Below, piece after piece: positions 12,087 through 29,198 of a stretch of DNA of 64,000 bases (positions within the stretch are counted from its first letter, which is position 1; every line of letters starts with the position of its first letter). The stretch comes from an uncultured archaeon (GTDB taxonomy: Archaea; Asgardarchaeota; Thorarchaeia; Thorarchaeales; Thorarchaeaceae): assembly GCA_964558645.1 (NCBI GenBank), contig CAZLEV010000003.1:96001-160000 (forward strand), in the 5' to 3' direction. The notes beneath the pieces were generated by a model. It worked only from the letters and a program-made list of their open reading frames with translations. It was not told the origin of the DNA and did no database searches. The translations under genes were made by a program, and so were the position numbers.

Positions 12087-12842
12087 ATGGACGAAGACGC
12101 AGAGAAGCTCATAGAACGAGCTCGTGAACTACACCGCGATGAGCGATACGAAGAGGCCGAGAGTATTCTCCGTAAAGGTCTAGAGGGGTATCCTGATAAC
12201 GAAGAACTGAAGGTTGAGCTTGGCATTACTCTTGCGTCAATGGCTCGGGATGAGAGAGCTGAAAGAGTTCTACGCAGTGTTCTTGACACCAATCCTACAC
12301 ATGAGAGAGCAGCAGGAGCTCTCGGACGTCTGCTTGACAGTTGTCTTCGAAGCGATGAGGCCGAGGCAATCTATCGTGACATAATCGAGCTAGAACCAAG
12401 GAGCCATCATGTCTTTGAAGACCTAGTTCGGTTGCTGGTGTCCGAAGGGAGAACGCCCGAGGCCCTCAGCCTTGCGCGGGAACATGCAGAGGCCTACCCA
12501 CGAGACTATGAGGCATATGACGCTCTTCGGGTGGTCCTGCTCAAGATTGAGGATGACATGGACTCATTCCTCGATAGGGATCTTGGGAAACCCGGGAATC
12601 TCCTCAGAGTTCTTTCAAATTATCTTGAGCAGTATTCGGTCTATCGGCAGATGCTGGAGCAGGTTGACCAACAGACACTCGAAACTGAGAATAGACGTGA
12701 GATTCTAGAAGATGAGATCGACCGGGTAATCGCTGAAATATGCGCTCTACGAGATCATATCGAGTCCAACAGAGATGTCCTATCTCCTGGTGTTCTTGCT
12801 GCGGCGGATGAGTTGACATCCCAGAGGTCAGCCTCTGAATGA
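12087..12842 (+). CDS. Tetratricopeptide-repeat protein
   Basis: Repeated A..ILR..LE.YP / LDTNP / IELEP helical TPR-like units. Confidence 0.75.
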   Translation: MDEDAEKLIERARELHRDERYEEAESILRKGLEGYPDNEELKVELGITLASMARDERAERVLRSVLDTNPTHERAAGALGRLLDSCLRSDEAEAIYRDIIELEPRSHHVFEDLVRLLVSEGRTPEALSLAREHAEAYPRDYEAYDALRVVLLKIEDDMDSFLDRDLGKPGNLLRVLSNYLEQYSVYRQMLEQVDQQTLETENRREILEDEIDRVIAEICALRDHIESNRDVLSPGVLAAADELTSQRSASE

Positions 12843-12860
12843 GAGCGACTCGTATTGGTT

Positions 12861-13157
12861 CTACTGCCACATGTAACCAAGGATCTCCTCATCTTGAGGT
12901 TTCTCTGCTTCAGAGATATAGACAATATGCTGATTGCCTTGATTCGCAAGCCAAATATGATATGGCTTTTCTCCGAGGGTTTCAAGGAGATCAACTCTCT
13001 GTTCTGCATCCATTCCCATCACTCTCAGCAGGGTACTGATGTTAACAGCTCTGTCCAAGTTTTTACTGACCGTAGCCATGATTCTCTTTTCTGACCCCTC
13101 TTCCATGTTCAGGATTTCCTTGTTTCTAAGAACCGACTTTATCCTCATCTGCTTCAC
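12861..13157 (-). CDS. Small hypothetical protein
   Basis: Globular-looking 98-aa ORF convergent with the TPR gene. Confidence 0.6.
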   Translation of the reverse strand: MKQMRIKSVLRNKEILNMEEGSEKRIMATVSKNLDRAVNISTLLRVMGMDAEQRVDLLETLGEKPYHIWLANQGNQHIVYISEAEKPQDEEILGYMWQ

Positions 13158-13299
13158 GAGGAGGCATTGTCATGCGCGAGAAATAAGGCTAACTTTCTCA
13201 GACGAGAATGAACCCATCATGTGTTGAATCTCTTTCCCTTAGGAGTGGGGGACTAAGAGGCCTGCGACAAGCCCTGAATAAGCATTGTCAGAGTTGCGT

Positions 13300-13542
13300 T
13301 CATATCTTTCTCTTTTTTCTGAGACGGAGGTGGGTACCCACAAGGCCCGCAGATAAGAGCGCGACGATGCTAAGAATAAGAACCTGAAGATGCAGGCTGC
13401 TCATATCAGATTCAACAACAACAGTGATTACTTCACTTAGTGAATTCCTGTATGGATCTCTTGCTATAACCAACAAGTGATACTCACCTGACAACAGAGT
13501 TACGGTGCTGATAATAGTCCCTGTAGAAGTTTGCGATTGCAG
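13300..13542 (-). pseudogene. Remnant C-terminus of an Ig-like, membrane-anchored surface protein
   Basis: TGTIISTVTLLSGEYHLLVIARDPYRNSLSEVITVVV + TM + RLRKKRK; in-frame TGA at 13543-13545; no signal peptide or N-terminus. Confidence 0.55.
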
Positions 13543-13702
13543 TCATAGGCAGAAGAAGAGGTGTTTCAAGCTGATATCGTGGACCATTTTGAGAACTATT
13601 CTCTAAATTCAGTAATCCTGATGCAGGGCTATTCAGCCCGTTGGTGAGGTTCAGCGCGCCACTAGAACGTGAGGCATCTCACAAGAAAAGGAGTCTAAGA
13701 GA

Positions 13703-14041
13703 TTGTCAGAAACAGGTATTGAACAAGTAGCAGATAAGATCGTCTTCGGTCTGAATCTAGGATACGGCGTCTTTCTCGCGCTATTCTCACTATCCGGTTT
13801 GATATTCCTAGGCCCGATTGCAGCAGTTGGAGTCATGCTCGGACTAGCCCTAGTTCTGATCGCGTGGATGTTCCTCAAGCCGGTGAAGAAGGAAGGACGG
13901 TTGTACGCTATCATCGTCAACATAATCACTATACCCACGGCGGCCCTTCTGCCGTTTCCACTGTGGGCATTCCCGATTACGTTCGCTGTTTTGATTGTGT
14001 TCATAATGCTCGTCCCACCAATTAGAGAACCGCATACGTGA
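13703..14041 (+). CDS. Small multi-TM membrane protein
   Basis: Four hydrophobic segments, SD AAGGAG upstream. Confidence 0.65.
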   Translation: MSETGIEQVADKIVFGLNLGYGVFLALFSLSGLIFLGPIAAVGVMLGLALVLIAWMFLKPVKKEGRLYAIIVNIITIPTAALLPFPLWAFPITFAVLIVFIMLVPPIREPHT

Positions 14042-14159
14042 GACCTTTTGCGGCAACCGTCGGAGGTGGCCATTTCTTTTTCTTCTTCCATCTAGAACCA
14101 GTGAGATGACTGTACATGGACAATGGATTTAAACCAGAACCTTTCCCCAGGGAGCTACG

Positions 14160-15485
14160 TTGAGCCTCCTAGGATATTCAAGACTGAAAGCTAGAGAGTT
14201 CACTGGACTATCCACTTTTCAAATCCTGACATACTTTCGCAGGGCTATCGTCTACACTTTCTTGTCACTCTATCTGCGGTCGCTTGGCCTCTCAACAACT
14301 GAAGTGACCCTAATGGCCACTGTCGGGATGATTGCCAATGCATTCACCCAATCCCTCCTCTGGGGGAATCTACTGGACAAATACAGAAGGCCTGCGGACT
14401 TTATTGCCATTGGTGAGTTTCTTGCTGGCGTTGGGCACTTCTTCCTGGTTATGGGGTATGTCTTCTTCCTCGGTCTGGGCCAAACGATGGCTGCAGGCTA
14501 TGTCATCATTTTTGGTCTGGGTGGGATCGAAGTATTCTGGAGCATGTCGAATGTTGGCTGGTCTGCATTGGTATCCAAACTGACTGATATCGAAGAGAGG
14601 AAGAAGCTCATGGGGCAGTTTTCCACAATCGGTGGCTTCGGTGGAATCGGGGGTGCACTTCTCGGTGGATACCTCTACGATGTTGGAGGCTTCGCTGACG
14701 GCACCATCTTCAATGTCGCGGCAGTCATCATGATAATTTCCAGCATCATTGTGTATCTCACTATCCGCGCTAAGGATGAGGAGGATATTGAGCTCTCTGA
14801 AGAGGAGTCTGATGAGATTCCATCGTTGGGCAGCCTGCCATCTCAGCTCAGAACCGCCTATGTCCTCTTCATCGCAGCCCTGGTCTTCATCAACTTCGGA
14901 AGAAACTCCATATCCATCATCACCAGTCTGTTTCTTGAAGACCCCACTGGATTCGGAGCATCAGGATTGGATATCGCTCTCTTCAGCAACGTGCGCAGCG
15001 CTGCAAACATGATAGCAGGTCTCATCGTGGGTTCGGTGGTCGCGAAGACCGACGACAACAAGGCCTTGATGGCTGGAGTGATAACATCGATTACTGGAAT
15101 CCTTTGGCTGACAATAACTCCTACCTTCACACTCGCACTGATCGCTTCGTTCCTTAGGGGCGCATCAGAGGTCATCATCGGAGCCGCGAGCTATTCGATT
15201 GTTGCAGAAATGGCACCTGAAGAATACCGCGGGAGACTGTTTGCGTACTACAACACTACCTTCTTCCTCTCGTGGGGAATTGCTGCGACACTGATTGCAG
15301 GTCCAGTAGCAGATCTCCTCATCGCTGAGGGTGCATCAAATGCAGATGCCTACCGAGGTAGTTTCATCACTGCGATTGTTCTTGTTTCGATTGGTGTTGC
15401 GTTGCTTCTCTTTGCATTCAGATATGCAAAACGAAACGTCCTCTCTCACTCAGACGAAGATGGAACAGGCGTCATCTCTGAATGA
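14160..15485 (+). CDS. MFS transporter
   Basis: 12 TM pattern, GNLLDKYRR motif A-like, APEEYRGR. Confidence 0.9.
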   Translation: MSLLGYSRLKAREFTGLSTFQILTYFRRAIVYTFLSLYLRSLGLSTTEVTLMATVGMIANAFTQSLLWGNLLDKYRRPADFIAIGEFLAGVGHFFLVMGYVFFLGLGQTMAAGYVIIFGLGGIEVFWSMSNVGWSALVSKLTDIEERKKLMGQFSTIGGFGGIGGALLGGYLYDVGGFADGTIFNVAAVIMIISSIIVYLTIRAKDEEDIELSEEESDEIPSLGSLPSQLRTAYVLFIAALVFINFGRNSISIITSLFLEDPTGFGASGLDIALFSNVRSAANMIAGLIVGSVVAKTDDNKALMAGVITSITGILWLTITPTFTLALIASFLRGASEVIIGAASYSIVAEMAPEEYRGRLFAYYNTTFFLSWGIAATLIAGPVADLLIAEGASNADAYRGSFITAIVLVSIGVALLLFAFRYAKRNVLSHSDEDGTGVISE

Positions 15486-15740
15486 GCTATGTGCTATATC
15501 GCCATAGAACTCTCTGATTGTATGGCGACCCCTCTGTTCTTACGACAACTGCTTGCCATTTTTGCCGATATCATTTTAAGGATTCCGGGAGTGATTTGGA
15601 TTAGGAAGCCGGTTTGGCGGAGCAGCTACGCAACAGACTGCAGATCTGTACCACCTAGGTGCAAATCCCAGAGCCGGCTCCACTTCTTCTTTGGCCTATT
15701 GGCAAGAGAGTGTTAATCGAGTCGCGCTCACTAACTCGAA
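15347..15740 (+). repeat. Left copy of ~395 bp imperfect direct repeat (MFS 3' end + promoter + tRNA-Cys)
   Basis: Aligns at a constant offset of 9841 with 25188-25581; end point approximate. Confidence 0.9.
15608..15682 (+). tRNA. tRNA-Cys(GCA), copy 1, with A-C mismatch in the T-stem
   Basis: Acceptor GCCGGTT/AGCCGGC, anticodon arm ACAGA-CTGCAGA-TCTGT, U73, encoded CCA; T-stem CTAGG/CCCAG; TTTTAA TATA at 15574-15579. Confidence 0.85.
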
Positions 15741-15833
15741 AGTAGGAACATTGAGTACATTAATGGTCTAGATAACACTGCCAAGGAATACGAAGGAAAA
15801 AATACATAGGGCTTATGGTTTACCCTTGCCCCT

Positions 15834-16733
15834 TCATTGGTTATTCTCAACAAAGAAACCCATTTCCTCCAGCTCTCCTCTGAGGACCTTCATTTTTGAT
15901 AAGGTTTCAGAACGTTTGGCGCAAAACAATGGACCGCCTATTTTTCGCTCCGCCAGTTGTTTATCCAGAGAGGTCAGGACTGAACGCAATTCGCTAAGAC
16001 GGTTCTTGAGATTTGCCGCATACGATTTGCTTTCTGATTCAGACACCTGTAAAGGTTTCTGCCGTTCTCTGATTAGGCCATCTTGGATATGAAGAACCCT
16101 GTCAGCATCACGGACCATGTTCGCATCATGTGTAACCATTATGACGGTTTTCCCTAAGTCAGTAACTGAGTGACGAAGATAACCAACTACTTCAAGGGCA
16201 TTTGTGGAATCAAGAATTCCGGTTGGTTCATCAGCAAGAATGATCGGAGGATCATTAGCTAGGGCTCCAGCGATGGCTACACGTTGGCGTTCTCCGCCGC
16301 TCATTTCGGATGGGGTATGTTCAGCCCTTTCCAGAATGCCCACCATCTCCAGGAGTTCAGTCGCACGTTCATGACGCCGCTTCTTGTCAACGTCCATGGC
16401 AATCATCGGAACTTGTACATTCTCAAATGCAGTAAGGGTAGGAATGAGATTCAAATCTTGAAAGACATACCCGATCTTCGTAAGACGATACCTGTCCTGT
16501 TCTTTTTCTGAGAGGGTAGATAGGGTGATGCCATCTACCTCTACCGAACCTGCTGTGGGAACATCTACTGCACTTAGAATATTAAGAAATGTAGTTTTTC
16601 CACTTCCAGAGGGACCCATGATTGCAATGAATTCTGCCTGCTTTACAGTCAGTGATGCTCCTCGTAGAGCTTGCACTTCAACTGAACCAGTACGGTAGAC
16701 TTTTACTAAATCAACAACTCGAATGATATTCAA
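15834..16733 (-). CDS. LolD/MacB-type ABC ATPase with C-terminal helical extension
   Basis: GPSGSGKT, MSGGERQRVAIA, ILADEPTG, VTHD. Confidence 0.9.
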   Translation of the reverse strand: MNIIRVVDLVKVYRTGSVEVQALRGASLTVKQAEFIAIMGPSGSGKTTFLNILSAVDVPTAGSVEVDGITLSTLSEKEQDRYRLTKIGYVFQDLNLIPTLTAFENVQVPMIAMDVDKKRRHERATELLEMVGILERAEHTPSEMSGGERQRVAIAGALANDPPIILADEPTGILDSTNALEVVGYLRHSVTDLGKTVIMVTHDANMVRDADRVLHIQDGLIRERQKPLQVSESESKSYAANLKNRLSELRSVLTSLDKQLAERKIGGPLFCAKRSETLSKMKVLRGELEEMGFFVENNQ

Positions 16734-19495
16734 TATACCTTCCTCCTTTTTACAAGATTGGCATTCCGATTAAACATGTAAAAGATTGAATAAACGGTGA
16801 CGACAACAATCAGTAACTCCACAACAAGTACAACGCTTGATGAAATATCGATGATGAACCTATAAGGCACTCCTTGGGTACTCGATGCACTCATCTGTTT
16901 GATAGAGGAATAGGACAGCAACAAACCCAAAGGTATTCCGATTGTGAATGCGAGTAAGATATGAGTGACAAATCCTGAAAGTAGAATCAATGTCCTTGAA
17001 TGGTGTGAGATCCCCCGCCTCATGAGAGATATCAAGTCCTGCTCCATTCGTAGACTATATGCAGTACAAATAAGTGCAAGCCCGGAGATTGTGACAGCAA
17101 ATCCGAAAGAAGTGGTAATGGTGTTGACTGCATTTGGGCCCCGATATTCAGGGCCACTTAGTAAAGAAACAATTTTTTCACTGGCGATTTCAACACTCGC
17201 AGAAGAATCGATGGCAAGGATTTGCTGTCTAATTTCTTCTATGTTAGCCTCGTCAGATAACCGCGTCAAGATTCTTACCTCATATTGCGTTCTCTCAAGT
17301 ATCTCCACAAAATCCATGGGAACAAGAATACCCTCTGTGATTCCAGTAGCGTCATAATGAGGCATGTAGTCCATCAGTCCACTTACAGTCAGATTAACCA
17401 AGCTAACCGAAAATGGCTGCAAAGATAATGAGAGGGAATCTCCCACACCTAACCCAATTCTCTCAACAAATGACTGTTCAGCAATGCATTGATTTCCATT
17501 GAGCGAAGCGATAATATCGTGACCTGAACTTCCAGAAAACCAGCCGGCTTCGTAATACGCTGAATCTAACCAGCTGTCAACATCAATAGTCGCAACCGAA
17601 AGCCGCTGGTTTACCAGATACATTTGTGCTACGTAGACTTCGCTGTAGACAGGAGTATTCTCATTAACCTCAAGAGCACTTCGGGTCGCATTCAAATAAT
17701 CGCTACTAGATAGTGTTATTGTCATGTCAGAGCCGATTCTGGCTTGAATCGATCTAGTGTCATGATTAAGCTGAGAAGAAGCCAGTATTGGATTCATAGT
17801 TGAGAATGCTACAATGAAACAGAGAATAAAGAGCAAAGAAATGCTGTGTTCCATGTCTCTCATGGAACGGGAAGCAAAAACCGAGCCCAAATCTCCATTA
17901 ATTACTCTCCCTCCTTTGTCAGCTATTTTCTGAGGGAGCTCGAGATACCTAGTTATATACATCGCTATTGCATATGCAAGAATGATAGGACTAATGGGAC
18001 TAATCCACCGGATTACATTGCGTAGAAAGTCCAGAATTATTATTATCAAAGCATTTGATAGCGAGGATATTACCATCTGGTAAATCACATTACCGTCGAG
18101 CAAATCCCACAAGACTTGGATGATGGCAAGAAGAGTCAATGCGACTACGTATCTGAATGGAACGACGGACTCCTCACTTGAGTGATTATCTTCTTCAGAA
18201 TCTGAGTCTTTTATTTGATCAGTTAGCTGCCCATTACGTCCAGCAAGCATCAAAAAACCAGAACAACCAACAGAAAGAAGGGTTGTCAGTCCCAGTACAT
18301 ATAGAACCTGCATGGGAAAAATAGAAACGTGAAAAACAAGAAGGATCGCGCTCTTCGTTTGAAGGAACAAATATAAGAGAAAACCAACAACACCAACAAC
18401 AAATCCAACTACTCCTCCAAGAATTCCGTTTACTATTGATTCAGTGACCGCAAGCAAATTGACATCAGTACCACTGAAACCCCTTATCCGTAATTTACCA
18501 AGATTGACTTTCCGATGTTTCCAAGTAATGCCATATGATACATAGACGAGGTAAGCTGATACAAAGAGAATGTTAATGAGTGATTCTTGAGCTTGAGAGT
18601 TCTGTTTGTTTGACCAAGAAAGAATGTCCTTCATGAGTACGCCCAGATTGTTCGTCACGACAGAGGAAGGTGAAACACTTTGCACAACGTTCTTTGTTGA
18701 AGTGGTGATTTGGGTCAAGTGAAAGATGGAAGATTCTATTTGAAATGGGTTTATTACCTCTTCTCCAATAGTAGACAACAGCCAATTTGAATACCCTTGG
18801 AGAAACTCCAGAGAAAGAGTATCCTCTATGGATTCCATTATCCATCTGTAATCCATGATAACGACGTTGCCATAAATCGAAACGCTCGCATCATGCGCAG
18901 AACTAAGTATACCACGGGATATGTTCTTTTGAGATGATGTCAATTCCCTTGTTCTAATCTCATCGAGAGGTAGGTGGACCTGTTGCAAGTATCCATCTTT
19001 GTATAACGAAATGTTAGCATCGATAAGCGGGTTAATTCCTTCGTAATTGGTGAAATTGCCATCATCAGAAACAACTGCGGCGTTGCTTGCGTGATCTTCG
19101 TTCCATTCTGATGGTCTTACGGATTCGAAGTAGTGAGTATCAGAGTCAATTGCCGCTATTGTAGTGTTATGCCGGATTGAAGGATTCTCCCGTTCGTATA
19201 CAACACCATGAAAGATAGCAAATCGTTCACACGATTCAATTCCTTGGATCGATTTTACTTGTTCAGTTAGTGCTTCTGTTTGACTGCCATTGATACCATC
19301 CGGAGAAATTAGGTTGACTGTCATATCGACAAGAATGTCGCTTCGAGCATCGGAAACCGCTTCAGCACTTGAGAAAGAGAGAATGAGATTAGACTGAGTA
19401 ATCAAGGCCGAGCAAAGAATGAAAGAAATAAGTGTGAAAGTGTAGCCAACTTTGTCTCGGAATAATCCTCGAAGCAAGAGCTCCCTAATTGGCAT
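16730..19495 (-). CDS. FtsX-like ABC permease (duplicated 4-TM + extracellular domain)
   Basis: Two TM-large loop-3TM halves; LGKLRIRGFS, IGSDMTI, LISLMRRGIS. Confidence 0.8.
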   Translation of the reverse strand: MPIRELLLRGLFRDKVGYTFTLISFILCSALITQSNLILSFSSAEAVSDARSDILVDMTVNLISPDGINGSQTEALTEQVKSIQGIESCERFAIFHGVVYERENPSIRHNTTIAAIDSDTHYFESVRPSEWNEDHASNAAVVSDDGNFTNYEGINPLIDANISLYKDGYLQQVHLPLDEIRTRELTSSQKNISRGILSSAHDASVSIYGNVVIMDYRWIMESIEDTLSLEFLQGYSNWLLSTIGEEVINPFQIESSIFHLTQITTSTKNVVQSVSPSSVVTNNLGVLMKDILSWSNKQNSQAQESLINILFVSAYLVYVSYGITWKHRKVNLGKLRIRGFSGTDVNLLAVTESIVNGILGGVVGFVVGVVGFLLYLFLQTKSAILLVFHVSIFPMQVLYVLGLTTLLSVGCSGFLMLAGRNGQLTDQIKDSDSEEDNHSSEESVVPFRYVVALTLLAIIQVLWDLLDGNVIYQMVISSLSNALIIIILDFLRNVIRWISPISPIILAYAIAMYITRYLELPQKIADKGGRVINGDLGSVFASRSMRDMEHSISLLFILCFIVAFSTMNPILASSQLNHDTRSIQARIGSDMTITLSSSDYLNATRSALEVNENTPVYSEVYVAQMYLVNQRLSVATIDVDSWLDSAYYEAGWFSGSSGHDIIASLNGNQCIAEQSFVERIGLGVGDSLSLSLQPFSVSLVNLTVSGLMDYMPHYDATGITEGILVPMDFVEILERTQYEVRILTRLSDEANIEEIRQQILAIDSSASVEIASEKIVSLLSGPEYRGPNAVNTITTSFGFAVTISGLALICTAYSLRMEQDLISLMRRGISHHSRTLILLSGFVTHILLAFTIGIPLGLLLSYSSIKQMSASSTQGVPYRFIIDISSSVVLVVELLIVVVTVYSIFYMFNRNANLVKRRKVY

Positions 19496-22213
19496 TTATG
19501 GCCCCCTCCATTTGGTCACATAGCACGACAATCTCATTAGGGCAGCACAAAGTACCGAAATAAATGGAACAAAAATAATCGAAAATATACCGAATGAGAA
19601 TACTGGTATTACCAAAGCTGGCACTGGGCCAGACATGCCTCGGATGAACCCCAGTGAAGTGAAAGCTCCTATCGCCACGCCAACCATGATGAAAATCATC
19701 AGTGGTGCAATTTCCCAGTAGAGGAGACCACTGATTCTCTTGCGCCCAAAGCCGTGAATTTGTAAATTGCGAATTTCCTCAGCTCTGTTATTTCTGACCG
19801 ATGCAGTAAGTGAGAAAATACCTAATAATGAGAGCGGGATGGCAAAGAGAACACTGATTAGTCTGAAATCAACAAGAGAAACGCTCAGATTCATTTCTAA
19901 TGTATTAACATCATCTGCAGATTGAATCCGGTATATAGGTAGATTCATCATTTCAAGGGAGTGAATGACCTCTGATTTGACGGCGGAATCCTCAACGCGG
20001 ACGAGCACTCTATCACGAGTTGCAATGAGTCCCTCCAAGGCATCACAGAATTGAGTATTCACATATGACCATGTTTCTTCGCAGAGATATTCAGCGCCGG
20101 AACCAACAGACGATTCCACAAGGATGGGATCAGGTCCATATAGTCCAATAATGTGAAGAACCCATGAATGATCGTTGAGTGAGAGAGTTATGAAGTCGCC
20201 AATAGCTAAGCCAAGTCTAGCTGCCACTAGCCGTTCAAGGATAATTGTGTCATTGCTAACGAGTGATTGAATTCCTTGAGAGCTGTCATTGAATGCAAAC
20301 CAACTTCGACGGTAGTATGCTGCCGAAGTCCAGTTTTGCGGCTCAATTCCTCTTATTCTAATTCTGTCTGTAATGGCATCGAGAGAAAATTCGCGCTCTA
20401 CTGCGAGGGAATCGACTCCTGATAAGTCAAGGACTTTCTCCAATTCGAAACTATTATTTCCTACACTCAACTGAAATGAAATGTCAGAACCGTTTTCGAC
20501 GAGGGCAAACTCACGATGATGTGCCGTCATTATATCAAGAGATAGTGATGTCCAAGTAGCATAGCCAACGACAAGTGCGAGAATTAGAGCAAGATGGGCA
20601 TTACGTTCTCGATTTCGATAGAGATTCCTTGACGCAAGTATCCCAAGCGTGCCTTTGAGTCTGGCTGAAATGCCTGACAGCTCGTAAAGAACTCTTTCCG
20701 ATGTTGCGGATAAAGATGCTAGACCATACATGAGAAGCAGGGGGCCGATGACATTGAGAATGTAATCTATCGAAATCCACGTAGAGAATACGATTTGTAC
20801 AAAGACATCTTCGAAGCCGCCTGCAGCCATCATCATTTCGAAGGGGTCAATTCTGGCCATCCATGCAGCCATCTTGTAAATCCCTAAAGCTGTACAAAGA
20901 AGAGGAAGGCCAATACCTCGATTTCGTGTTTCTTCATAATGAGTAATCTTGTTGATTAATCCTTGAGAATGTTCAGCAAAGGAATGAAGAGTAACATGGG
21001 CGGTATATGCAGGTATTGATGCGGCAATCACCACTATCATCGAAAAGGCCGCTATATCTAAGGCCGCGGAATCAATATGAGAGAAGCTAGAATATGCACC
21101 AACAATTCCCAGCGTCAAGCCCACTACCAACGAAGCTAGTGTGACAACAAAAGAATGCCAATACTGTCCTATTCTAATGAAGCCCAGTGAATACCCCTTA
21201 GTTCTTAATAGACGGATTTCTCTCTTCTTCCTCTTAGCAGTCCGAATTCCCTGAATTCTTGCTATAATCAAGGTTAGAAAAATTATGGGAAGAAAGCTGG
21301 TAACAAGGTCAAATAATAGACTATCGTAATACTGCTTCAGACTACTCAGCTTGCCTTCAAGATTTGAACCGATAACATATCTTCCATTACCGCCTAATGC
21401 CAAAGTCAATTTAGTCTTCATTTCATCTATGAGATTGGTTACTGAGCCAAGGACTATGTTTTGTTGAACCAAGTCTTGATCCAGCGTTATGGCTGTGTGG
21501 CAAAGCAGCGCTGGGGATAAGCTTGTTGCTCTCTCAGAGATGAAATCCAGTATTGGTGCAATAGTTTCACCGAAATTGGTTAACACGACTGAAGCGGGAC
21601 TGGTTTGGCTTATCATTCCAGGTGCATTTGAATATTCGAAAAACAATGCTGAAAGGTCAATGTCTGTCGATACGAGTCCGGAAACTGTTAGATTAAGCGA
21701 CACGGAAGGTACAACTGAGCTTCCCTTCTCGAAATAAGGAATTGAAAAGGGTATTGTCGAGTTTAGGTCATAGTGGAGAGCAGCTTCAGTATTCACGACT
21801 ACAAGACACTGGTTAACATCCGGAATATCAAAGGCATCATGAAAAGTGAAATGTTGCCAGATATCCGAATCCGCCTCCAAAGCGACGAAACCCTTTGGCG
21901 ATTCTCCTCCGCTGGAAATGACAGATATGGCAACCGATTCCGCATGACCCACTCCTTCCACCGAATCCAGCAATGAAATGCGATTCTGTAGGTCTGATTC
22001 TGATAGAACGCCTTGATGCTGAACTGTCATGTCAAAAACAATTTGTTTGGTAGTATCAACTGCCGCCTGTCGAAATACAATATTCGAGGATAGAAAGAGG
22101 AGGGTCAATGCCAGAATAACAAGAAACGGACTGATGCAGTCACTAAGGAAATGCTTCTTCTTTCTGCGTATCTGTTTGGTCGAGTAGATACATGATTTAA
22201 AGATATGACTCAT
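19496..22213 (-). CDS. FtsX-like ABC permease (paralog)
   Basis: KREIRLLRTKGYS, RNLYRNRER, NGSDISF, LGLAIGDFITL, EIRNLQIHGF. Confidence 0.8.
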   Translation of the reverse strand: MSHIFKSCIYSTKQIRRKKKHFLSDCISPFLVILALTLLFLSSNIVFRQAAVDTTKQIVFDMTVQHQGVLSESDLQNRISLLDSVEGVGHAESVAISVISSGGESPKGFVALEADSDIWQHFTFHDAFDIPDVNQCLVVVNTEAALHYDLNSTIPFSIPYFEKGSSVVPSVSLNLTVSGLVSTDIDLSALFFEYSNAPGMISQTSPASVVLTNFGETIAPILDFISERATSLSPALLCHTAITLDQDLVQQNIVLGSVTNLIDEMKTKLTLALGGNGRYVIGSNLEGKLSSLKQYYDSLLFDLVTSFLPIIFLTLIIARIQGIRTAKRKKREIRLLRTKGYSLGFIRIGQYWHSFVVTLASLVVGLTLGIVGAYSSFSHIDSAALDIAAFSMIVVIAASIPAYTAHVTLHSFAEHSQGLINKITHYEETRNRGIGLPLLCTALGIYKMAAWMARIDPFEMMMAAGGFEDVFVQIVFSTWISIDYILNVIGPLLLMYGLASLSATSERVLYELSGISARLKGTLGILASRNLYRNRERNAHLALILALVVGYATWTSLSLDIMTAHHREFALVENGSDISFQLSVGNNSFELEKVLDLSGVDSLAVEREFSLDAITDRIRIRGIEPQNWTSAAYYRRSWFAFNDSSQGIQSLVSNDTIILERLVAARLGLAIGDFITLSLNDHSWVLHIIGLYGPDPILVESSVGSGAEYLCEETWSYVNTQFCDALEGLIATRDRVLVRVEDSAVKSEVIHSLEMMNLPIYRIQSADDVNTLEMNLSVSLVDFRLISVLFAIPLSLLGIFSLTASVRNNRAEEIRNLQIHGFGRKRISGLLYWEIAPLMIFIMVGVAIGAFTSLGFIRGMSGPVPALVIPVFSFGIFSIIFVPFISVLCAALMRLSCYVTKWRGP

Positions 22214-22236
22214 CAGTCCTTCTTCACTCCAGCAGA

Positions 22237-23214
22237 CTAAAAGCCTCTCTTCTTGCCGCTACGCTTTCTCTTGTTGCCTCGCCGATTATTACTTCTCGCA
22301 TTCTTTAGGGCTTTTACCGATATGAAGAACATCCCTACAAACACGCCAATCCCCGCTATTAGATAGACCATTGAAAATGGAATGCCAGCAGTCTGCACGG
22401 GTTCGCCAAGGTCAAAGCTGGTGTTAATCAGGGTGATTTTTCCGGATCCAGATGAAAGATTGCAGGTACCCATTAGAAAGAAATCTATCGGGCTATCCAC
22501 AATCTCAAGTAGCAATCCAGTGTCATAATCAAAACTGTACACCGAACTCTGATTTTTTCCGAGTACGTCTTCTCCCAAGGCATCAAAAGTATATATTCTT
22601 TGCAACCCATCCATTGTGTCAATTACAACTGGACTCTCATACGACCGGCGTTCCCCCATAAGAGGGTCAAAACCATTCCTTGAAGATAGTATCTTTCCTT
22701 CCCCTTGATCCTCTCGCTCTCCAAATAGCCTAAAGATGCCTGTCATACCGAGGTGAGCACCACTTCGAACTGTGTACTCTCCTGTTTCGGTATTCAAGCT
22801 GAAATTGAAACTCGCAGAATAATGGTATTTATCTGGATTTTGTGAGGTGAAGGAGGCATTGACCATGTTGATTTCATCTGTTTGTTCTATAACCTCAAGC
22901 TCAAGCGTCAGCTCTATCAAATCTCCCTCGTAGCCTACAACATACGTGGAATTCTCAAGTTGTACATGTGCAAATTCGAACTTGTACGTGAAAGTCAGCC
23001 CCTTAGAAAGGGGAGCGAGAGACATCTTCTTTTGTGTCCGCGGTTCGCCAGGTGCTGAGATACTACCAGAAACCTCATAGAGAGTGTTTGCATTTCCCAA
23101 TTGAGGGATGGAGGGAATTTGCACCATAAGCAGAATCAGTATTAGGTAAACAATGCAGATATTGTCGGATATTTGGTCTAGTTCATTCATTTGATACATT
23201 TCATCTACTCCCAA
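22237..23214 (-). CDS. Hypothetical secreted protein with C-terminal TM anchor and basic tail
   Basis: N-terminal hydrophobic stretch, beta-rich middle, C-terminal TM followed by NRRGNKRKRSGKKR; start uncertain. Confidence 0.7.
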   Translation of the reverse strand: MGVDEMYQMNELDQISDNICIVYLILILLMVQIPSIPQLGNANTLYEVSGSISAPGEPRTQKKMSLAPLSKGLTFTYKFEFAHVQLENSTYVVGYEGDLIELTLELEVIEQTDEINMVNASFTSQNPDKYHYSASFNFSLNTETGEYTVRSGAHLGMTGIFRLFGEREDQGEGKILSSRNGFDPLMGERRSYESPVVIDTMDGLQRIYTFDALGEDVLGKNQSSVYSFDYDTGLLLEIVDSPIDFFLMGTCNLSSGSGKITLINTSFDLGEPVQTAGIPFSMVYLIAGIGVFVGMFFISVKALKNARSNNRRGNKRKRSGKKRGF

Positions 23215-23267
23215 CTTGTATTTTGATCATTCATTTTCGAGTCATAAAACGATGGAGCCATAACCGG

Positions 23268-23308
23268 AAAAAAATCGGGCTGGTGGGCAACTAAACACCA
23301 ACCAGCCC
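23268..23308 (-). terminator. Hairpin + T-tract downstream of the 153-aa secreted gene
   Basis: GGGCTGGT...ACCAGCCC inverted repeat (23277-23308) followed by T7 on the minus strand. Confidence 0.6.
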
Positions 23309-23365
23309 TCCTATTGTCTCTATCAATAATGAATCGACTAAGTTTCTACGAAGCTACTACTCTCA

Positions 23366-23827
23366 TTACACCCTCCAATCAACAAATACAAGATCGTTGC
23401 CTGTATCCCCTTGGAGATAGACATCAGTGTAAAGTTTGGTTGTCTTTCTTTCAATCTGGATCCAACCCCATGGAGACCATAATCCTGTTCCAAAGTCATA
23501 GAAGCAACTCACTCTTACAAAGTTGGAATACCCCATTGTATCCTCTTCTGTTTCGGGCGTATTGAATAGGACAACTGGCCAAACGATATGGTACTTGGGC
23601 ATTGAATCATACCACGTTAAATCCCAGTCTTCACCTTCTGCGGTCGTGCCTATTCCAATATACGACCCAAACCAGTTCCACCCAGTCCAAGCATCATCCA
23701 AATTGACCCTATATAGATGGGACTCATGCACAGCTTGCACAGTTGGTGTGACAAAGGCTACAACTGTGATGCCCGTAAAGGCAAGAGCTAGGGCCAATGA
23801 TGCCAAGTATATTTCTCTATTATTCAT
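23366..23827 (-). CDS. Small secreted Trp/aromatic-rich protein
   Basis: Sec signal peptide ending VQA; AGGTGA SD; ~120-aa mature part with many W/Y/F. Confidence 0.75.
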   Translation of the reverse strand: MNNREIYLASLALALAFTGITVVAFVTPTVQAVHESHLYRVNLDDAWTGWNWFGSYIGIGTTAEGEDWDLTWYDSMPKYHIVWPVVLFNTPETEEDTMGYSNFVRVSCFYDFGTGLWSPWGWIQIERKTTKLYTDVYLQGDTGNDLVFVDWRV

Positions 23828-24432
23828 CTTCTTTCACCTGTTTTACAGTTGCTTAGAAAGGAGATTCAGATGTTATTCTATCTCCATCCTCGGCGCAAGA
23901 GAGCAATCAGAACGTAGTATATCACTGGAATTTGTACTAAAGATTCGCATGCCGTCTCTGATGTGTACCTAGTATACACATAATCATAATCCTGCTCCTC
24001 TAATACCAAGCTTAGTTATTCGTTATAGAATATAAAGATGACCACGGTTCATGCATAGAAACGTGAATTGCCAAATCTATTCAAATTAATCGCTGGAATC
24101 ACCGGAGACATGCACCATCGAACATCGAAATGTATCGAAACGCTATATGAAAAGGCCCCATTTTTCGTGAAGTTGAAGCCATTTACGCTAGAATCTCATT
24201 TTGTTCACGGGAACAGGACGAGTCTATTTTCAACCGGGTAGAATGGAGACATTAAATTCACAGTACAGATGCATAAGCAACATCGTTTCTCTATGAAGCG
24301 TGATATAGGAAGGACCCTACAAAAACAGACAACGAGAGCGTCAATATCTTAACAAACGGACACAACGAAGGACACTGAGTGTGGAGTACTAATGCAGCGG
24401 TGGTAGGTGGCTGGATCCCATCTATGAGAATG

Positions 24433-25196
24433 GGCTCTGTGTGAAAAGTCGAGGAGAGTAATAGAAGGATATGTGACCAGACTGGCTGGTTCGCATGATT
24501 CATGTCTTACTCTTCATCGTACGACACAGCCAAGTCTCGTCATCCTCAGTTCTTGCTCCATGAGCTTATGAAGCTTCGTACTATGGTCCCCACCCGATCC
24601 TCTACCCTGGGCCGACCTGTCGATTTTCCCCTCCCTGCTCTCTTTGTCCTCCTGGGCCTCAAGTTCGACTCCGGCCTCAGCTACCGGAGCTTCGTGGCCC
24701 AGCTCTCCTCCAACCCGCAGCTCCTTGAACTCCTCGGTCTTAAGCGGGCGCCAAGCTATTCCATCCTCCAACAGGCACTCAGACGATTGGACACCCAGCT
24801 CCTCCACCAGATGTACCGGCTGCTGGCTCGGAGGAGGCCTCCTCCCAGACACATCGCCGTGGACGCCACGGGGTTCTCTCACGCCACCGGGGGTGAGTGG
24901 TACTCCGTGCGGTTCAAAACGACGCGGAGACGACGGTTCCACGGCCTGCACAACGCCGTCGACCCAGATAGCCTGATGATCACTGCATCCCGGGTCCGGG
25001 CGGGTCCCGGTGGCGATGCACAGCACCTGGTGGCGCTGATCCGACGGATCAGTCCTGCAAGCATTGAGGTGGTCTACGGTGACAGGGGGTACATCTCACG
25101 GAAGAATGTCCAGTTCATCAGTGATGTCGGTGCGTATCCTGCCATCGAACCGAAGGAAAACGCGGTACTAAGGCCACGGGGGAATCCTGCCTACCG
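24433..25196 (+). mobile_element. Truncated IS5-family (IS903-like) element, left part only
   Basis: GC-rich block; candidate left end GGCTCTGTGTGAAAAG at 24433; right end replaced by MFS-derived sequence. Confidence 0.6.
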
Positions 25197-25335
25197 AGGT
25201 AGTTTCATCACTGCGCTTGTTCTTGTTTCGATTGGTGTTGCGTTGCTTCTCTTTGCATTCAGATATGCAAGACGGAATGGACTCTCTCGTTCAGATCGTA
25301 ATGAAACCCGTTTCTTCTCTGAAAAGGTCACATGA
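24502..25335 (+). pseudogene. IS5-family DDE transposase, C-terminally truncated and fused in frame to a copy of the last MFS TM helix
   Basis: IAVDATGFS, LHNAVD, YGDRGY present; third catalytic E region absent; ends AYRGSFITALVLVSIGVALLLFAFRYA, matching the MFS C-terminus. Confidence 0.85.
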
Positions 25336-25581
25336 AGGGTCATCTCAGAGTTTCCTGCTTGCATCGTAGTCCTAACGCTCGCATGAGCATTGCTTGCCAT
25401 TTTTGCCGATATCATTTTAAGGATTCCGGGAGTGATTCGGATTAGGAAGCCGGTTTGGCGGAGCAGCTACGCAACAGACTGCAGATCTGTACCACCTGGG
25501 TGCAAATCCCAGAGCCGGCTCCACTTCTTCTCTGGTCTATTGTCAAGAGATTGTTAGTCGAGTCATGCTCACCAACTCCGA
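25188..25581 (+). repeat. Right copy of ~395 bp imperfect direct repeat
   Basis: Colinear with 15347-15740; end point approximate. Confidence 0.9.
25449..25523 (+). tRNA. tRNA-Cys(GCA), copy 2, fully paired
   Basis: Same cloverleaf as copy 1 but T-stem CTGGG/CCCAG is perfect; U73 + CCA. Confidence 0.92.
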
Positions 25582-25667
25582 AGAGCCGAAAGCCGTTCAA
25601 ATGGTACGCTAACGTCAGTGATTCGGAGGTCTTATCTGAATGGTACAGGATATAGATATGGAGATAT

Positions 25668-26957
25668 GTGTATATAGAGGTGTCATTGATGAAGACCTCC
25701 CGACAAGTCGGCCGTTTCGGCATTCTCATACTCATTGCAATAGCTGTCTTCTCCACTCCGATTCTCATCTGGCATTTAACAAGAGCCCCCTCTACTATGC
25801 AATTGCCTGCTCCCGATTTGGTGGGTTATCTCCCTCTCTCTGACGCCTTGGGTATTGATGTCGTCGATGATTCTTTTGAAGGTCAGGCTCTGAATCTAAC
25901 TGATGTTTCTCAGCTCTTGTGGTCGATGCAGGGGATGACCAGTGCTGCCGGGTTCAGAGTCGCTCCCTCTGCAGGGGGAACATATCCGCTTGAGGTCTTT
26001 GTAGCTGTGAACCGCGTGTCAGACCTAGAAACCGGTTTCTATCGCTACAATCCCAATGGTCATTCTTTGACCGAAGTTTCAATCAACGAAAGCGCAGATC
26101 TTACTGATTGCTTTGCTGTTGATGATAGGGTAGTTCTAGAAGAAGCGTCCGTTGTATTGGCAGTCTTCGCTGAATATGCACGAACGACACAGAGATATGG
26201 TGCGAGGGGGATTCAGTATGTTCATCTCGAGGTAGGCCATGTGCTACAGAATGCCTTTCTCCAGATGGCAGCCCTTGATCTGCGAACCAAGCCGATATTG
26301 AATTTGGATGAGGGAATGCTTCAAGGGTTCATGAATACCGCCTATCATCCTCTTCTCGTCTTGCCTGTTGGAAGATCTTGGACTCTTGGGCCATTGAGAA
26401 ACGTCCCGATGGATGGTACTGAAATGACCGTCGAGCAGGCAATCAACAGTCGCCGTTCTGTGAGAGATTACCTGAACCATAGTTTTCCTAATGAGAAGCT
26501 TCTTGAAATCCTTAACAGCTGCGCCTTGGCCCCTCTGATCGGAGGCAATGCATCGCATTACAGCTTACGTCTAGTATTGCGAGATGTTACGCTGCTTGAT
26601 ACAGGACTCCACGAATTCTCTTTGACAAATGGGACTCTTACAATGCTGAGCGATGAGAATCTGGTTGAAAGCATCTTCGAAGCAGGTCTCAGTCAGCCTT
26701 GGATTCGCGAAGCCCAGGTCAATCTGGTCATCTCTGCAGAGTTTGGATGGACGCGGCAATTGCATGATGCGGATTTTCAGTGGAGGATGATGCTTTACAA
26801 TATCGGGATGCTGAGCCAGATTGTCTATCTCAAGTGCGCGTCCATGGGTCTAGGTACCGTTGCAGTAGGCGGGCTCTATGAGGATCAGGTCGCCCAAGTA
26901 GTTCAAGTTCCTGAAGGGTTCACCTCTGTATACATCATGCCCATTGGAGTTCTATAA
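25668..26957 (+). CDS. SagB/ThcOx-family nitroreductase-like dehydrogenase, tandem domains, N-terminal TM
   Basis: RVAPSAGGTYPLE, RYGARGIQYVHLEVGH, second domain AINSRRSVRDY...LGTVAVGG. Confidence 0.85.
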   Translation: MYIEVSLMKTSRQVGRFGILILIAIAVFSTPILIWHLTRAPSTMQLPAPDLVGYLPLSDALGIDVVDDSFEGQALNLTDVSQLLWSMQGMTSAAGFRVAPSAGGTYPLEVFVAVNRVSDLETGFYRYNPNGHSLTEVSINESADLTDCFAVDDRVVLEEASVVLAVFAEYARTTQRYGARGIQYVHLEVGHVLQNAFLQMAALDLRTKPILNLDEGMLQGFMNTAYHPLLVLPVGRSWTLGPLRNVPMDGTEMTVEQAINSRRSVRDYLNHSFPNEKLLEILNSCALAPLIGGNASHYSLRLVLRDVTLLDTGLHEFSLTNGTLTMLSDENLVESIFEAGLSQPWIREAQVNLVISAEFGWTRQLHDADFQWRMMLYNIGMLSQIVYLKCASMGLGTVAVGGLYEDQVAQVVQVPEGFTSVYIMPIGVL

Positions 26958-27005
26958 CTCAACTGCACAAGACCTATCTCTGTCCCCTGTGAATGAATCG
27001 CTCGA

Positions 27006-29198
27006 ATGTCCATGAGTGACCTTGATGGCAATCTTGCTCTGAGAATAGTAGACGAAACAAGGCAGATTGCTGACCGTCTCGGAATCACTTCCGAGCACTC
27101 CCAGCGTCATGTTATGGAATGCACACGTCTGGCGTCACTCAACTGGCTTTATCGCCGCACATACGGCCACAGAAATGCGGTTGATGAACTGTTCTTTCGA
27201 AGGCTTACATTCTTTGGAGAGAAATTAGGACTCGATCAGTCGCGTGTTGTCGACGATGTCCGACAGCTCCTGGAGGCATTCCGCAGTAGCAGTTTGATGG
27301 AAGAACTTGGGCGTTCTCCGTGTTATAGTCCTACAAGCCTTATGCTGAAACTCCATTCGATAGGGGCCTTTAGACCTATTAGCCATTCTATGGTTCAGAA
27401 AAGACGGCGCATTCTTGGAAGCTACTTCACGCCTATGCCTTTGGCTCAACATATCGTTGGAATCACCCTCGGACCTTGGCTGGAAGAGAGAAACCTGCGA
27501 GAGAGCTCTTCCGCTTGGGAGCGCGCTGCCCGTGATTTCACACTAATCGACCCGGCCTGCGGCCCGGGGGCGTTTCTTCTTTCTGCGGTTGATTATCTGT
27601 CTAGCCAGCTCAAGCGGAAATGTGACAGGACTAACTACAGACGGAATCTGTCCTTGTTTGTTGATGGTCTCTATGGAGTTGAACTTGATGGGGCTAGTGT
27701 GGAGGTTGCTCATAGAGTGCTAAACCACAGGTTGACAGAGCTTGGGCTGGAGAAGCCGATACCTAGTTCACACATAATTCAAGGTGATTCCTTGATTGGT
27801 TTTCTTAGGGAGCAATCAGGTGCTCCGAAGGAGTATCTATCTAGCCCATCGATCAATGAATTCAATTGGAACGAACGTTTTGAGTGCGAGATGCTGGAGC
27901 AAGGCGGATTCCGTTTTGTGGTGATGAATCCTCCATATGACAGACTCCATCCAAGCCGTGCTGAGTACATCAGAGAGCGCCTTTCTCAAGGCGAACGCGA
28001 AGTCGATATGGAAGGTTTTGAGGCATACAAGACTGAGTTGAAACAAAGAGTTGAGTACTTCAGGAACTCTGGTGAATATAGCCTTGCAAACAAGTACACC
28101 TTAGATACTCACAGGCTGTTCATCGAGCGAGCACTTCGCATCTCAAGAAGTGACGCTCGACTAGGTTTCATCGTTCCTGCATCGGTTCTCGGGGACCTCT
28201 CGGCTGCAGCTTTGAGAGAGGAGATCCTCACCAAGCACTCCATCTATCGCCTTGAAGAATACCAAGAAGGATCCTCGCTTTTCCCCAACGTGACACAGGC
28301 CCTCTGTATTATGAGTGTGAAGAAGGGAAGCCCCAGTGGTATCATCCCTGCTGCTTTCGGTCTTCGGCATCTGCATTCTCGTTCAAAGTTACGACTCGAG
28401 AGTATCTCTGTTCAAAGGATAGAAAACCTCTCAGGAAGTGAGTATATCATTCCACGCTTGAAGTCACAGGATTGGCAGATACTTGACATTATACACAAGC
28501 ATGCAAGCTTGAACAGGCATGACTGGGTACGTATATGTAGAGGGGAGCTTGACCTCACTCTGGATAAGAATCTGATAAGTGCAGATAATGATAAGCCTCC
28601 ACTTCTCAGAGGGTCACACATCAGAAGATTCGTTCATACCTCGAGTATTGAGATTGAGGACTTCGTCGACTATGATGCTTTCAAAGAGAAGCATAGCACC
28701 TCGGAACGCATTGCTCACTCGGAGCGGGAGCGAATCGCTTGTCAGCAGGTCTCGAATCGGAAGCAACGCTGGAGGTTGAAATTCGCGCTCGTGGAACCTC
28801 ATGTAGTGTTGGCAAACTCCTGCAACTACCTGACTCTTACCTGCTGTGGGAGTAGGCCTCTCCTCCTATACCTCTTAGGGGTTCTGAACTCCTCACTCCT
28901 AAACTGGCGGTTTGACATCACAAATACCAACAATCATGTTTCCAATAGAGAACTGGGGCACCTGCCGATTCCGTCGCCTTTTGATTTAACCCCAGAAGCA
29001 GAGCATCTTTACGATGCGATTGTGAAGGATGTCGGAGCTATATTGAACGGAGACACAGATTGTAGTCACAGACTAGAAGGACATGTATTTCAACTCTATG
29101 AGATACCTTCTGCACAAGCCCGAATCGTTCTATCTCACCTTGCCGCAGAGGAGAGAGAAGTCGAAGCTATCGTGCGAGGAATGGATGAAGCCATGTAA
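27006..29198 (+). CDS. N6-adenine DNA methyltransferase, Alw26I/Eco31I/Esp3I-like (gamma class with C-terminal TRD)
   Basis: GSYFTP, DPACGPGAFL, MNPPY, LFIERAL, RGELDLT, LLGVLNSSLLNWRF. Confidence 0.85.
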   Translation: MSMSDLDGNLALRIVDETRQIADRLGITSEHSQRHVMECTRLASLNWLYRRTYGHRNAVDELFFRRLTFFGEKLGLDQSRVVDDVRQLLEAFRSSSLMEELGRSPCYSPTSLMLKLHSIGAFRPISHSMVQKRRRILGSYFTPMPLAQHIVGITLGPWLEERNLRESSSAWERAARDFTLIDPACGPGAFLLSAVDYLSSQLKRKCDRTNYRRNLSLFVDGLYGVELDGASVEVAHRVLNHRLTELGLEKPIPSSHIIQGDSLIGFLREQSGAPKEYLSSPSINEFNWNERFECEMLEQGGFRFVVMNPPYDRLHPSRAEYIRERLSQGEREVDMEGFEAYKTELKQRVEYFRNSGEYSLANKYTLDTHRLFIERALRISRSDARLGFIVPASVLGDLSAAALREEILTKHSIYRLEEYQEGSSLFPNVTQALCIMSVKKGSPSGIIPAAFGLRHLHSRSKLRLESISVQRIENLSGSEYIIPRLKSQDWQILDIIHKHASLNRHDWVRICRGELDLTLDKNLISADNDKPPLLRGSHIRRFVHTSSIEIEDFVDYDAFKEKHSTSERIAHSERERIACQQVSNRKQRWRLKFALVEPHVVLANSCNYLTLTCCGSRPLLLYLLGVLNSSLLNWRFDITNTNNHVSNRELGHLPIPSPFDLTPEAEHLYDAIVKDVGAILNGDTDCSHRLEGHVFQLYEIPSAQARIVLSHLAAEEREVEAIVRGMDEAM

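Follow-up and report, generated by a model that had tools for sequence, protein, structure and literature searches.

Positions ~15743–25187 of a 64,000-nucleotide stretch of DNA from an uncultured Asgard archaeon of the family Thorarchaeaceae hold a compositionally foreign, 9.4-kb island that encodes no recombinase and lies between two copies of a single locus, namely the 3' end of a major facilitator superfamily (MFS) transporter gene followed by a gene for tRNA-Cys. The stretch, called the window below, comprises positions 96001–160000 of contig C3 of a metagenome-assembled genome (MAG) that we term G000 (GCA_964558645.1; 37 contigs, 3.63 Mb, 92.8 % complete, 6.3 % contaminated). The island carries a predicted ABC-exporter operon and, at its right edge, a broken insertion sequence (IS). 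We propose, with a probability of roughly 0.55, that it was inserted from a diverged congener in a homology-dependent, recombinase-independent manner, either as a circle, by a single crossover of the Campbell type, or through one-sided homology with an illegitimate joint. This reading is favoured because a long, diverged repeat with a full tRNA gene, foreign cargo, an illegitimate joint at the IS and the lack of a recombinase are found together. A long, complete and diverged repeat is what insertion-duplication would leave, and it does not resemble the core of an attachment (att) site.

Anatomy of the repeat

The two copies of the repeat, A at 15347–15742 and B at 25188–25583 (both on the plus strand), align without a gap at a start-to-start offset of 9841. 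For this comparison 15300–15800 was set against 25141–25641, and a repeat finder independently returned both blocks, 9841 apart. Searching all 3.63 Mb of the assembly turned up exactly two copies of the 396-bp repeat, and in the 60 nt beyond either of its ends the identity is 22–23 %, which is the random level. The repeat starts 261 nt upstream of the tRNA, within the neighbouring MFS gene. Copy A comprises the last transmembrane (TM) helix of the MFS protein, its tail, a 64-nt spacer, a promoter block, tRNA-Cys and 60 nt downstream; copy B contains an MFS 3' fragment, spacer, promoter, tRNA-Cys and the 60 nt, and runs on into the native flank. The MFS stop codon of copy B comes 9 nt later than that of copy A. 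The original prediction of an island lying between two copies of an MFS 3' end and tRNA-Cys, offset by 9841 without indels, is therefore borne out.

The identity of the two copies differs from segment to segment. In the coordinates of copy A, the last TM helix (15347–15430) matches at 82 of 84 positions (97.6 %), the tail (15431–15485) at 35 of 55 (63.6 %) and the spacer (15486–15549) at 29 of 64 (45.3 %). Farther downstream, the promoter block (15550–15607) matches at 57 of 58 (98.3 %), tRNA-Cys (15608–15682) at 74 of 75 (98.7 %) and the post-tRNA segment (15683–15742) at 50 of 60 (83.3 %). Despite their low identity, the two spacers appear to be truly homologous, because their ungapped identity was reached by only 0.05 % of shuffles (p = 5e-4) and their differences are rich in transitions, whose ratio to transversions is 24:11, compared with 30:83 and 43:77 in controls that are not homologous. 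The Kimura two-parameter (K2P) distance between them is ~1.4. Directional hypermutation of the spacer was considered and rejected, as the changes are symmetric in direction (C>T 9 and T>C 8; G>A 3 and A>G 4); the divergence looks old and neutral.

Both tRNA-Cys(GCA) genes, at 15608–15682 in copy A and 25449–25523 in copy B, lie on the plus strand and are complete, with Rfam scores of 45.9 and 51.4 bits, respectively. An Rfam scan of 12–27 kb returned these two tRNAs and nothing else, and they are the sole tRNA-Cys genes that ARAGORN detected in the assembly. The tRNA of copy B is identical to those of two other genomes of the genus, G001 (~89 % nucleotide identity) and the more distant G002. 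That of copy A has a G>A change at 15657, which neither copy B nor the two congeners share. By a hand assignment that the lower Rfam score supports, the change would place an A51·C63 mismatch in the middle of the T stem. Copy A may thus be a redundant tRNA-Cys that is beginning to decay. Minimum-free-energy folding gave no cloverleaf for either tRNA, and the folds were not used.

Divergence between the copies

Copies A and B appear to be orthologues from different lineages, as far apart as distinct species, because the distance between their tails is as large as that to G002 and the K2P distance of the spacers is so high. With G002 as the outgroup, the tails of A and B differ at 20 of 55 positions, those of A and G002 at 17 and those of B and G002 at 23. 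Further, the tail of B begins with RRNGLS, which is typical of the family; since this start is kept, the B fragment probably comes from a functional gene and is not a product of random decay. These distances and the retained motif uphold the view that the copies represent one locus from different lineages, as opposed to a short att duplication or a neutrally decaying copy.

The near-identical tracts tell another story. In the last TM helix, A and B differ at only 2 of 84 positions, whereas A and B differ from G002 at 14 and 13, respectively. The promoter block, for which G001 served as the outgroup, shows 1 difference in 58 between A and B against 16 (A–G001) and 15 (B–G001). In the post-tRNA segment, the counts out of 60 are 10 (A–B), 11 (A–G001) and 19 (B–G001). 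If the differences between A and B are scaled by the neighbouring segment, ~16.5 would be expected in the TM tract and ~14.5 in the promoter, where 2 and 1 are observed (Poisson P = 1e-5 and 7e-6). The mosaic had been attributed to purifying selection on two lineages. That explanation fails, as the near-identical tracts are far too similar when judged against G001 and G002, and a mosaic repeat of this kind is not to be taken as a mark of such selection. Judging from these comparisons, the TM tract and the promoter/tRNA tract must owe their similarity to exchange, or to homogenisation through recombination or gene conversion, because the tail and spacer are as diverged as those of distinct species while the tracts on either side are near-identical. 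The process would have been either gene conversion between the repeats or recombination among lineages before the insertion.

The same data speak to the idea that the MFS–tRNA-Cys unit was duplicated in situ long ago and diverged in place, the cargo arriving later. Copies of exactly equal length, without an indel, are what such a duplication might leave. Yet the spacer distance is at least as deep as that between congeners, while G001 and G002 have one copy each; identities of 82/84 and 131/133 beside one of 45 % are impossible by decay in place; and the B fragment starts exactly at the truncated IS. We therefore regard an in-situ origin as very improbable.

The truncated insertion sequence

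The right edge of the island is formed by what appears to be a truncated member of the IS5 family, of which only the left 756 bp are present (24432–25187, plus strand; left inverted repeat at 24436–24448; GC 0.59). Its product matches PF01609 (DDE_Tnp_1) at 1.2e-14 over profile positions 2–116 of 200, and scores 111.7 bits with NF033579, below the cut-off of 140. Full-length relatives elsewhere in the genome measure ~1006 bp and have the inverted repeat TCTGTGTGAAAAG. The window IS lacks ~250 bp, comprising the right inverted repeat and the C-terminus of the transposase. No right inverted repeat was found anywhere in the window, in which there is a single inverted-repeat match. A chimeric open reading frame (ORF) of 277 amino acids (24502–25335, plus strand) joins transposase residues 1–228 in frame to the MFS C-terminal fragment. 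The claim of a broken IS at the right edge can thus be made more precise: what is present are 756 bp of an IS5-family element, whose reading frame continues into an MFS 3' fragment.

The joint itself, at 25187/25188, hints at how the two genes were brought together. Protein-level homology to the IS (tblastx) reaches ~25197, whereas homology to the MFS gene begins at 25188, and the IS relatives, which are only 70–79 % identical, encode a similar Y-R-G string at this place. A short microhomology of 6–10 nt at the joint is possible but unproven. Elsewhere in the genome, 144 bp of contig C8 (83801–83944) are 97 % identical to the IS left end (24432–24575), after which the sequences part; this segment appears to be a second copy of the IS left end that is continued differently.

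An IS at the edge of the cargo, together with several related copies in the genome, might suggest that the IS itself brought about the rearrangement. A host MFS gene interrupted by an IS5 element could have undergone a double crossover (in the left flank and between two IS copies), or the cargo could have moved as a composite or one-ended transposon; the left segment 13149–14160 is likewise variable between strains. However, the window holds a single inverted repeat and one truncated IS, with neither a second IS nor a target duplication at 15743, so that the two bracketing IS ends and the target-site duplication of a composite or IS-mobilised transposon are lacking. Further, the right IS end is absent at the MFS joint, such that an IS–IS exchange would need an additional deletion, and transposition leaves the duplication of the tRNA locus unexplained. 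An IS-driven origin is accordingly quite unlikely.

Absence of a recombinase

No ORF scanned between 8.8 and 34.3 kb matched an integrase in Pfam, NCBIfam or PHROGs. Six-frame searches of the genome gave a sole match to the tyrosine-recombinase family PF00589, on contig C1 and not at the island, no match to PF16795 (SSV-type integrase) and only a sub-threshold match to the resolvase family PF00239, on contig C2. Profile and six-frame searches alike thus confirm that the island is integrase-free, in the sense that the window contains no tyrosine, SSV-type or serine recombinase.

These results bear upon the most familiar explanation for foreign DNA at a tRNA gene, namely a decayed integrative element. 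Its integrase, of the tyrosine or SSV type, would have disappeared since, perhaps when the IS was truncated. Integrative elements usually insert at tRNA genes, in Asgard archaea too (PMC8813620, PMC11529989). The island shares with such elements its location at a tRNA, a foreign composition, accessory cargo and direct repeats that contain tRNA sequence, and its IS-side end is visibly eroded. It departs from them in several ways. Neither a recombinase nor a remnant of one lies at an end of the island, and the six-frame searches detected no integrase fragment around it. Integrative elements leave short, exact att cores over the 3' part of the tRNA, with the distal tRNA partial; here, the repeat is a diverged mosaic of 396 bp that extends from the end of the upstream gene through the promoter and the entire tRNA, and neither tRNA is partial. 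Finally, for an attP to have homologous arms on either side, it would have to stem from a chromosomal tRNA-Cys locus. We consider a decayed element unlikely.

The locus in related genomes

Comparison with G001 provides an island-free congener. By blastn, G001 is collinear with the window over 8001–13148 and 25403–34000, and only 83 bp separate the two collinear blocks; 13149–25402, with the 1-kb segment, the MFS gene and the island, is missing. The order in G001 is thus TPR gene, tRNA-Cys, nitroreductase gene, with a single tRNA-Cys, and in another genus the TPR gene, tRNA-Cys and a methylase gene again follow one another. A search of the G001 genome did not find the MFS gene. In G002, the order is MFS (82 % amino-acid identity), a beta-lactamase-fold gene, an acyltransferase-like gene, a GH2 beta-galactosidase gene, tRNA-Cys, nitroreductase and methylase. 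The space upstream of tRNA-Cys therefore appears to be variable. An arrangement of MFS stop, 64 nt and promoter is common to copies A and B and is found in neither G001 nor G002. The three intervening genes of G002 (contig C61, 1956–7517, locus L023) include a 2-oxoacid-dehydrogenase-type acyltransferase, and the MFS gene may be part of a sugar-utilisation cluster in that genome.

The 83 bp upstream of the G001 promoter were also compared with both spacers. The p values from local alignment were 0.05 (B) and 0.20 (A), and MAFFT columns favoured B by 9:4. A shuffle test (ungapped, maximum over offsets) was significant for neither copy. The notion that B is the native copy, its spacer being closer to G001, was dropped.

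We looked for relatives of the B tail as well. A query with the 49-residue fragment found no full-length MFS protein with a B-type tail, and none of the 120 best MFS homologues carried that tail, the closest being 82 % identical. Three further look-ups are blanks and not evidence: an exact tRNA-Cys 3' pattern gave nothing in the JGI metagenomes or IMG/VR, the FtsX permease gave nothing in the JGI metagenomes, and exact-protein look-ups of the MFS and nitroreductase proteins were not on record.

Support for the assembly

The contiguity of the locus was checked with Logan contigs (k=31). In the probable source run, 12500–15405 is covered at a depth of 10.8, 15400–15579 (with the unique tail and spacer of A) at 11, 15661–24461 (100 % identical) at 11.4, 24578–25246 at 7.2, 25241–25420 (with the unique tail and spacer of B) at 8.8 and 25502 onward at 11. 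A chimera of two strains is unlikely, because the depth is even (~11) over the flanks, the cargo and both spacers. The contig 24578–25246 bridges the joint of IS and MFS with 59 nt on the MFS side. Of the two weak points foreseen in the original prediction, an unspanned joint at ~25188 is hence disposed of by an independent contig, whereas the concern over a chimeric assembly is answered only in part: the even depth argues against two strains, but k=31 contigs cannot phase the repeats. The linkage of spacers A and B to their respective flanks comes from the original assembly alone, because the k=31 contigs break in the shared tracts. Swapped spacers, or a single-copy chromosome accompanied by a 9841-bp circle, would both be compatible with these contigs.

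Could the island be an artefact of assembly or phasing? The genome would then have a single MFS–tRNA-Cys–nitroreductase locus, and a separate 9841-bp circle, or a second strain, would hold the cargo, IS fragment and second copy. The source is a 37-contig MAG with 6.3 % contamination; the k=31 contigs break in the shared runs and at the IS left end, and their graph also permits an empty site plus a circle; and one 141-nt contig mixes B-type and A-type variants in the tRNA tract. On the other hand, a mixture of two strains would double the shared flanks, yet the depth in the source run is even. The same pieces recur in a second study (100 % identity) and a third (99.7 %); typical reads are longer than the shared runs; and a 9.8-kb circle without a replication gene would hardly be kept at exactly the chromosomal copy number. 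We judge an artefact to be quite improbable.

The other metagenomes also inform the age of the island. In the second study, the 100 %-identical pieces come from both flanks and cargo. In the third (run X3), the whole island, including the junction after copy A, differs at 27 of 8792 aligned positions (99.7 % identical), while the MFS gene differs at 15 of 1318, the right flank at 24 of 1249 and the left flank at 46 of 1032. The island is significantly less diverged than each of these three regions (Fisher P from 1.5e-4 down to 1e-27). In a fourth study (run X4), the cargo is ~98–99 % identical among the matches listed and the right flank 94 %, with no left flank at an identity of at least 90 %. 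The island thus looks younger than the backbones that carry it, which would fit a recent spread. Differences in depth within run X3 hint at island-free strains.

The cargo operon

Five minus-strand genes between the repeats appear to constitute one operon for a MacB/FtsX-type ABC exporter. The first, at 23366–23827, encodes a small Trp-rich protein of 153 residues with an N-terminal signal-like segment. The second (22237–23214; 325 residues) belongs to no recognised family and has an N-terminal hydrophobic segment, a C-terminal TM anchor and a basic tail. The third (19496–22213; 905 residues; PF02687) and fourth (16730–19495; 921 residues; PF12704 MacB_PCD and PF02687 FtsX) are FtsX-type permeases, the fourth of the FtsX/MacB type, and the fifth (15834–16733; 299 residues; PF00005, 6.6e-35) is an ABC ATPase. 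The matches to PF00005, PF02687 and PF12704 are all above their cut-offs. Like other exporters of this type, the cargo has an ABC ATPase, FtsX permeases and a MacB-like extracytoplasmic domain in a single operon; unlike them, it has two very large permeases and two family-less proteins that are secreted or anchored. We accordingly view it as a probable MacB-like export module.

The identical five-gene order is found in a Thorarchaeota MAG (GCA_013388835.1) at 40–47 % identity, not beside a tRNA there; it is the only other operon of this kind that we found. Because this order recurs, we take the 153-residue ORF to be a real gene. Among 5.8 billion proteins, the sole non-self homologue of the second cargo protein is 47 % identical and comes from a Thorarchaeota MAG. 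The 600 bp between the operon and the IS are non-coding.

By composition and by the distribution of its homologues, the cargo appears foreign to this genome. Its GC of 0.428 compares with a mean of 0.496 (sd 0.016) for 8-kb windows of the genome, and only 0.06 % of windows are as low. The best homologue of the permease in the 85 other genomes of the family is 40 % identical and belongs to another genus, and congeners have only paralogues of ~22 % identity.

Proposed route of insertion

We propose that the island was acquired horizontally, having entered the tRNA-Cys locus by homology with the host segment that runs from the MFS 3' end to tRNA-Cys. The donor would have been a diverged relative in which the MFS gene lay directly upstream of tRNA-Cys and was followed, beyond the tRNA, by an ABC-exporter operon and an IS5-family element. 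The observed structure could then have arisen by two routes. In the first, a circle closed by the illegitimate joint of IS and MFS would have undergone one recombination with the chromosomal locus, which constitutes a Campbell-type insertion-duplication. In the second, homology within the MFS gene, or upstream of it, would have anchored a linear fragment, whose IS end would have been joined illegitimately to the host MFS gene at a short microhomology. By either route, the insert would end up between two versions of the homologous segment, one from each parent. Recombination or gene conversion, before or after the insertion, would subsequently have made the TM tract and the promoter and tRNA tract near-identical, while the 119-nt tail and spacer kept their deep divergence. 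The routes differ in which parent would have given the tail and spacer of A and which those of B, a point on which the comparisons with G001 gave nothing significant.

The original prediction had specified a circle and a single crossover. That version fits the structure; however, one-sided homology with an illegitimate joint gives an identical product, and no donor or circle was found, such that the broader reading of homology-dependent insertion is the one we retain.

Several observations weigh against that broader reading. A plain single crossover predicts the divergence of donor and recipient throughout the repeat, so that the two near-identical tracts need extra recombination. G001 does not have the MFS gene either and hence is not a clean empty site, and G002 has three other genes, ~6 kb, between its MFS gene and tRNA-Cys. 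A donor-type locus (MFS–tRNA-Cys–ABC operon) was found in none of the 86 genomes of the family (G000 included), the other phylum-level relatives searched, the JGI metagenomes or IMG/VR, and neither a circular nor an empty form was found in the genomes searched, the JGI metagenomes or IMG/VR; these searches were limited, and the absence is weak evidence. The microhomology at the joint is deduced from IS relatives of only 70–79 % identity. Lastly, the contigs used to check the assembly break in identical runs of 55–60 nt and again in the left end of the IS, of which C8 carries a 97 %-identical copy.

A further idea, which we put forward only tentatively and rate as doubtful, is that the island travels with its own copy of the MFS end and tRNA-Cys as a portable homology arm, by which it may enter related chromosomes, and perhaps also leave them; the two copies of tRNA-Cys and promoter would evolve in concert. 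If this were true, identities of 99–99.7 % for the island in three other metagenomes, against 94–99 % for the flanks, would reflect ongoing spread.

Relation to known systems

Textbook cases of Campbell-type insertion-duplication are the formation of Hfr strains through IS homology and the integration of suicide vectors. The island resembles them in that direct repeats of a homologous segment flank an insert which encodes no recombinase of its own, and in that recombination between the repeats would reverse the structure. It differs from them in that the homology is a diverged orthologous gene end with a tRNA, the repeats are mosaic and the host is an Asgard archaeon; further, our limited searches encountered neither a circular form nor a donor locus. 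Homology-facilitated illegitimate recombination, in which a one-sided anchor is combined with a microhomology joint, is established in naturally transformable bacteria, and the concept has reportedly been applied to the displacement of islands or effectors, in papers such as PMC5361080. Common to those cases and the island are foreign DNA beside the anchor, an illegitimate joint in two unrelated genes (here IS transposase and MFS) and an orphan 3' fragment downstream. Unlike the classical cases, which usually delete recipient DNA at the joint, 396 bp are duplicated here. A natural case of the Campbell type, that of cfr(C) in Campylobacter, is reported to involve homologous recombination and circular intermediates (PMC10770853).

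The papers on the mobile elements of Asgard archaea that we consulted describe integration based on integrases, transposases or homing endonucleases, and homologous recombination is not mentioned in them (PMC8813620, PMC11529989). Our literature searches found no described archaeal example of such an insertion structure. The locus would be a new instance, in an Asgard genome, of a mechanism that is textbook in bacteria, and does not represent a novel type of system. If the scar of an insertion-duplication were clear, it would demonstrate that Asgard genomes also gain operons by ordinary homologous recombination between diverged relatives, and that tRNA loci can serve as homology anchors besides their role as att sites. 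Islands of this type would escape island finders that rely on integrases. Although this is one locus with a known mechanism in an unphased MAG, with no donor found, it is still a clean and testable case.

Neighbouring features

The left conserved flank includes a gene for a TPR-repeat protein of 276 residues (12012–12842, plus strand), which has NCBIfam TPR matches and is 88.8 % identical at the amino-acid level in G001. This flank is followed by the variable segment 13149–14159, ~1 kb with no G001 counterpart and no recognisable gene, within which lies an unannotatable ORF of 146 residues (13651–14091, minus strand). In run X3, the main related strain (depth ~51) has unrelated sequence in place of 13531–14057, and the contig that bears the MFS gene reaches ~5 kb further upstream; the interval between the TPR and MFS genes (13531–14057) is therefore a second variable spot. 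The full-length MFS transporter has 441 residues (14160–15485, plus strand; PF07690, 3.3e-33), and its last 139 nt are within copy A. It is present in 44 of the 86 genomes of the family (G000 included) and, among genera in which both were located, adjoins tRNA-Cys only in this one. The tRNA-Cys locus is preceded, at a distance of just 3.7 kb, by the gene for cysteinyl-tRNA synthetase (10365–11852, minus strand).

The right conserved flank includes a nitroreductase-family gene (25668–26957, plus strand). Beyond it, 27006–30511 encodes an Eco57I/TaqI-like N6-adenine methyltransferase and then a C5-cytosine methyltransferase, with no recognisable nuclease adjoining; the linkage of tRNA-Cys and methylase is found again in several genera of the family. 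The region 30548–34346 encodes a 575-residue protein with a weak longin-domain match and then a 657-residue protein with an Arf/Roc/Ras-type small GTPase domain, and these two are eukaryotic-signature genes of the Asgard type. The small ORFs 13300–13494, 13651–14091, 23523–23972 and 24291–24503 had no match in PHROGs, NCBIfam or Pfam, and that at 23523–23972 is probably spurious, as it overlaps a conserved gene on the opposite strand.

With regard to the genome at large, ARAGORN detected only 21 tRNA genes in the 93 %-complete assembly, and many of its tRNAs are probably intron-containing or unassembled. BLAST of the assembly against itself revealed no other diverged local repeat that contains a tRNA. 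The largest other local duplication is a 2.9-kb direct repeat on contig C5 (157556–160426 and 166140–169164), whose copies are 86–90 % identical and ~7 kb apart. Contig C4 contains very large, internally repetitive coding regions at ~50–55, 82–85 and 101–109 kb.

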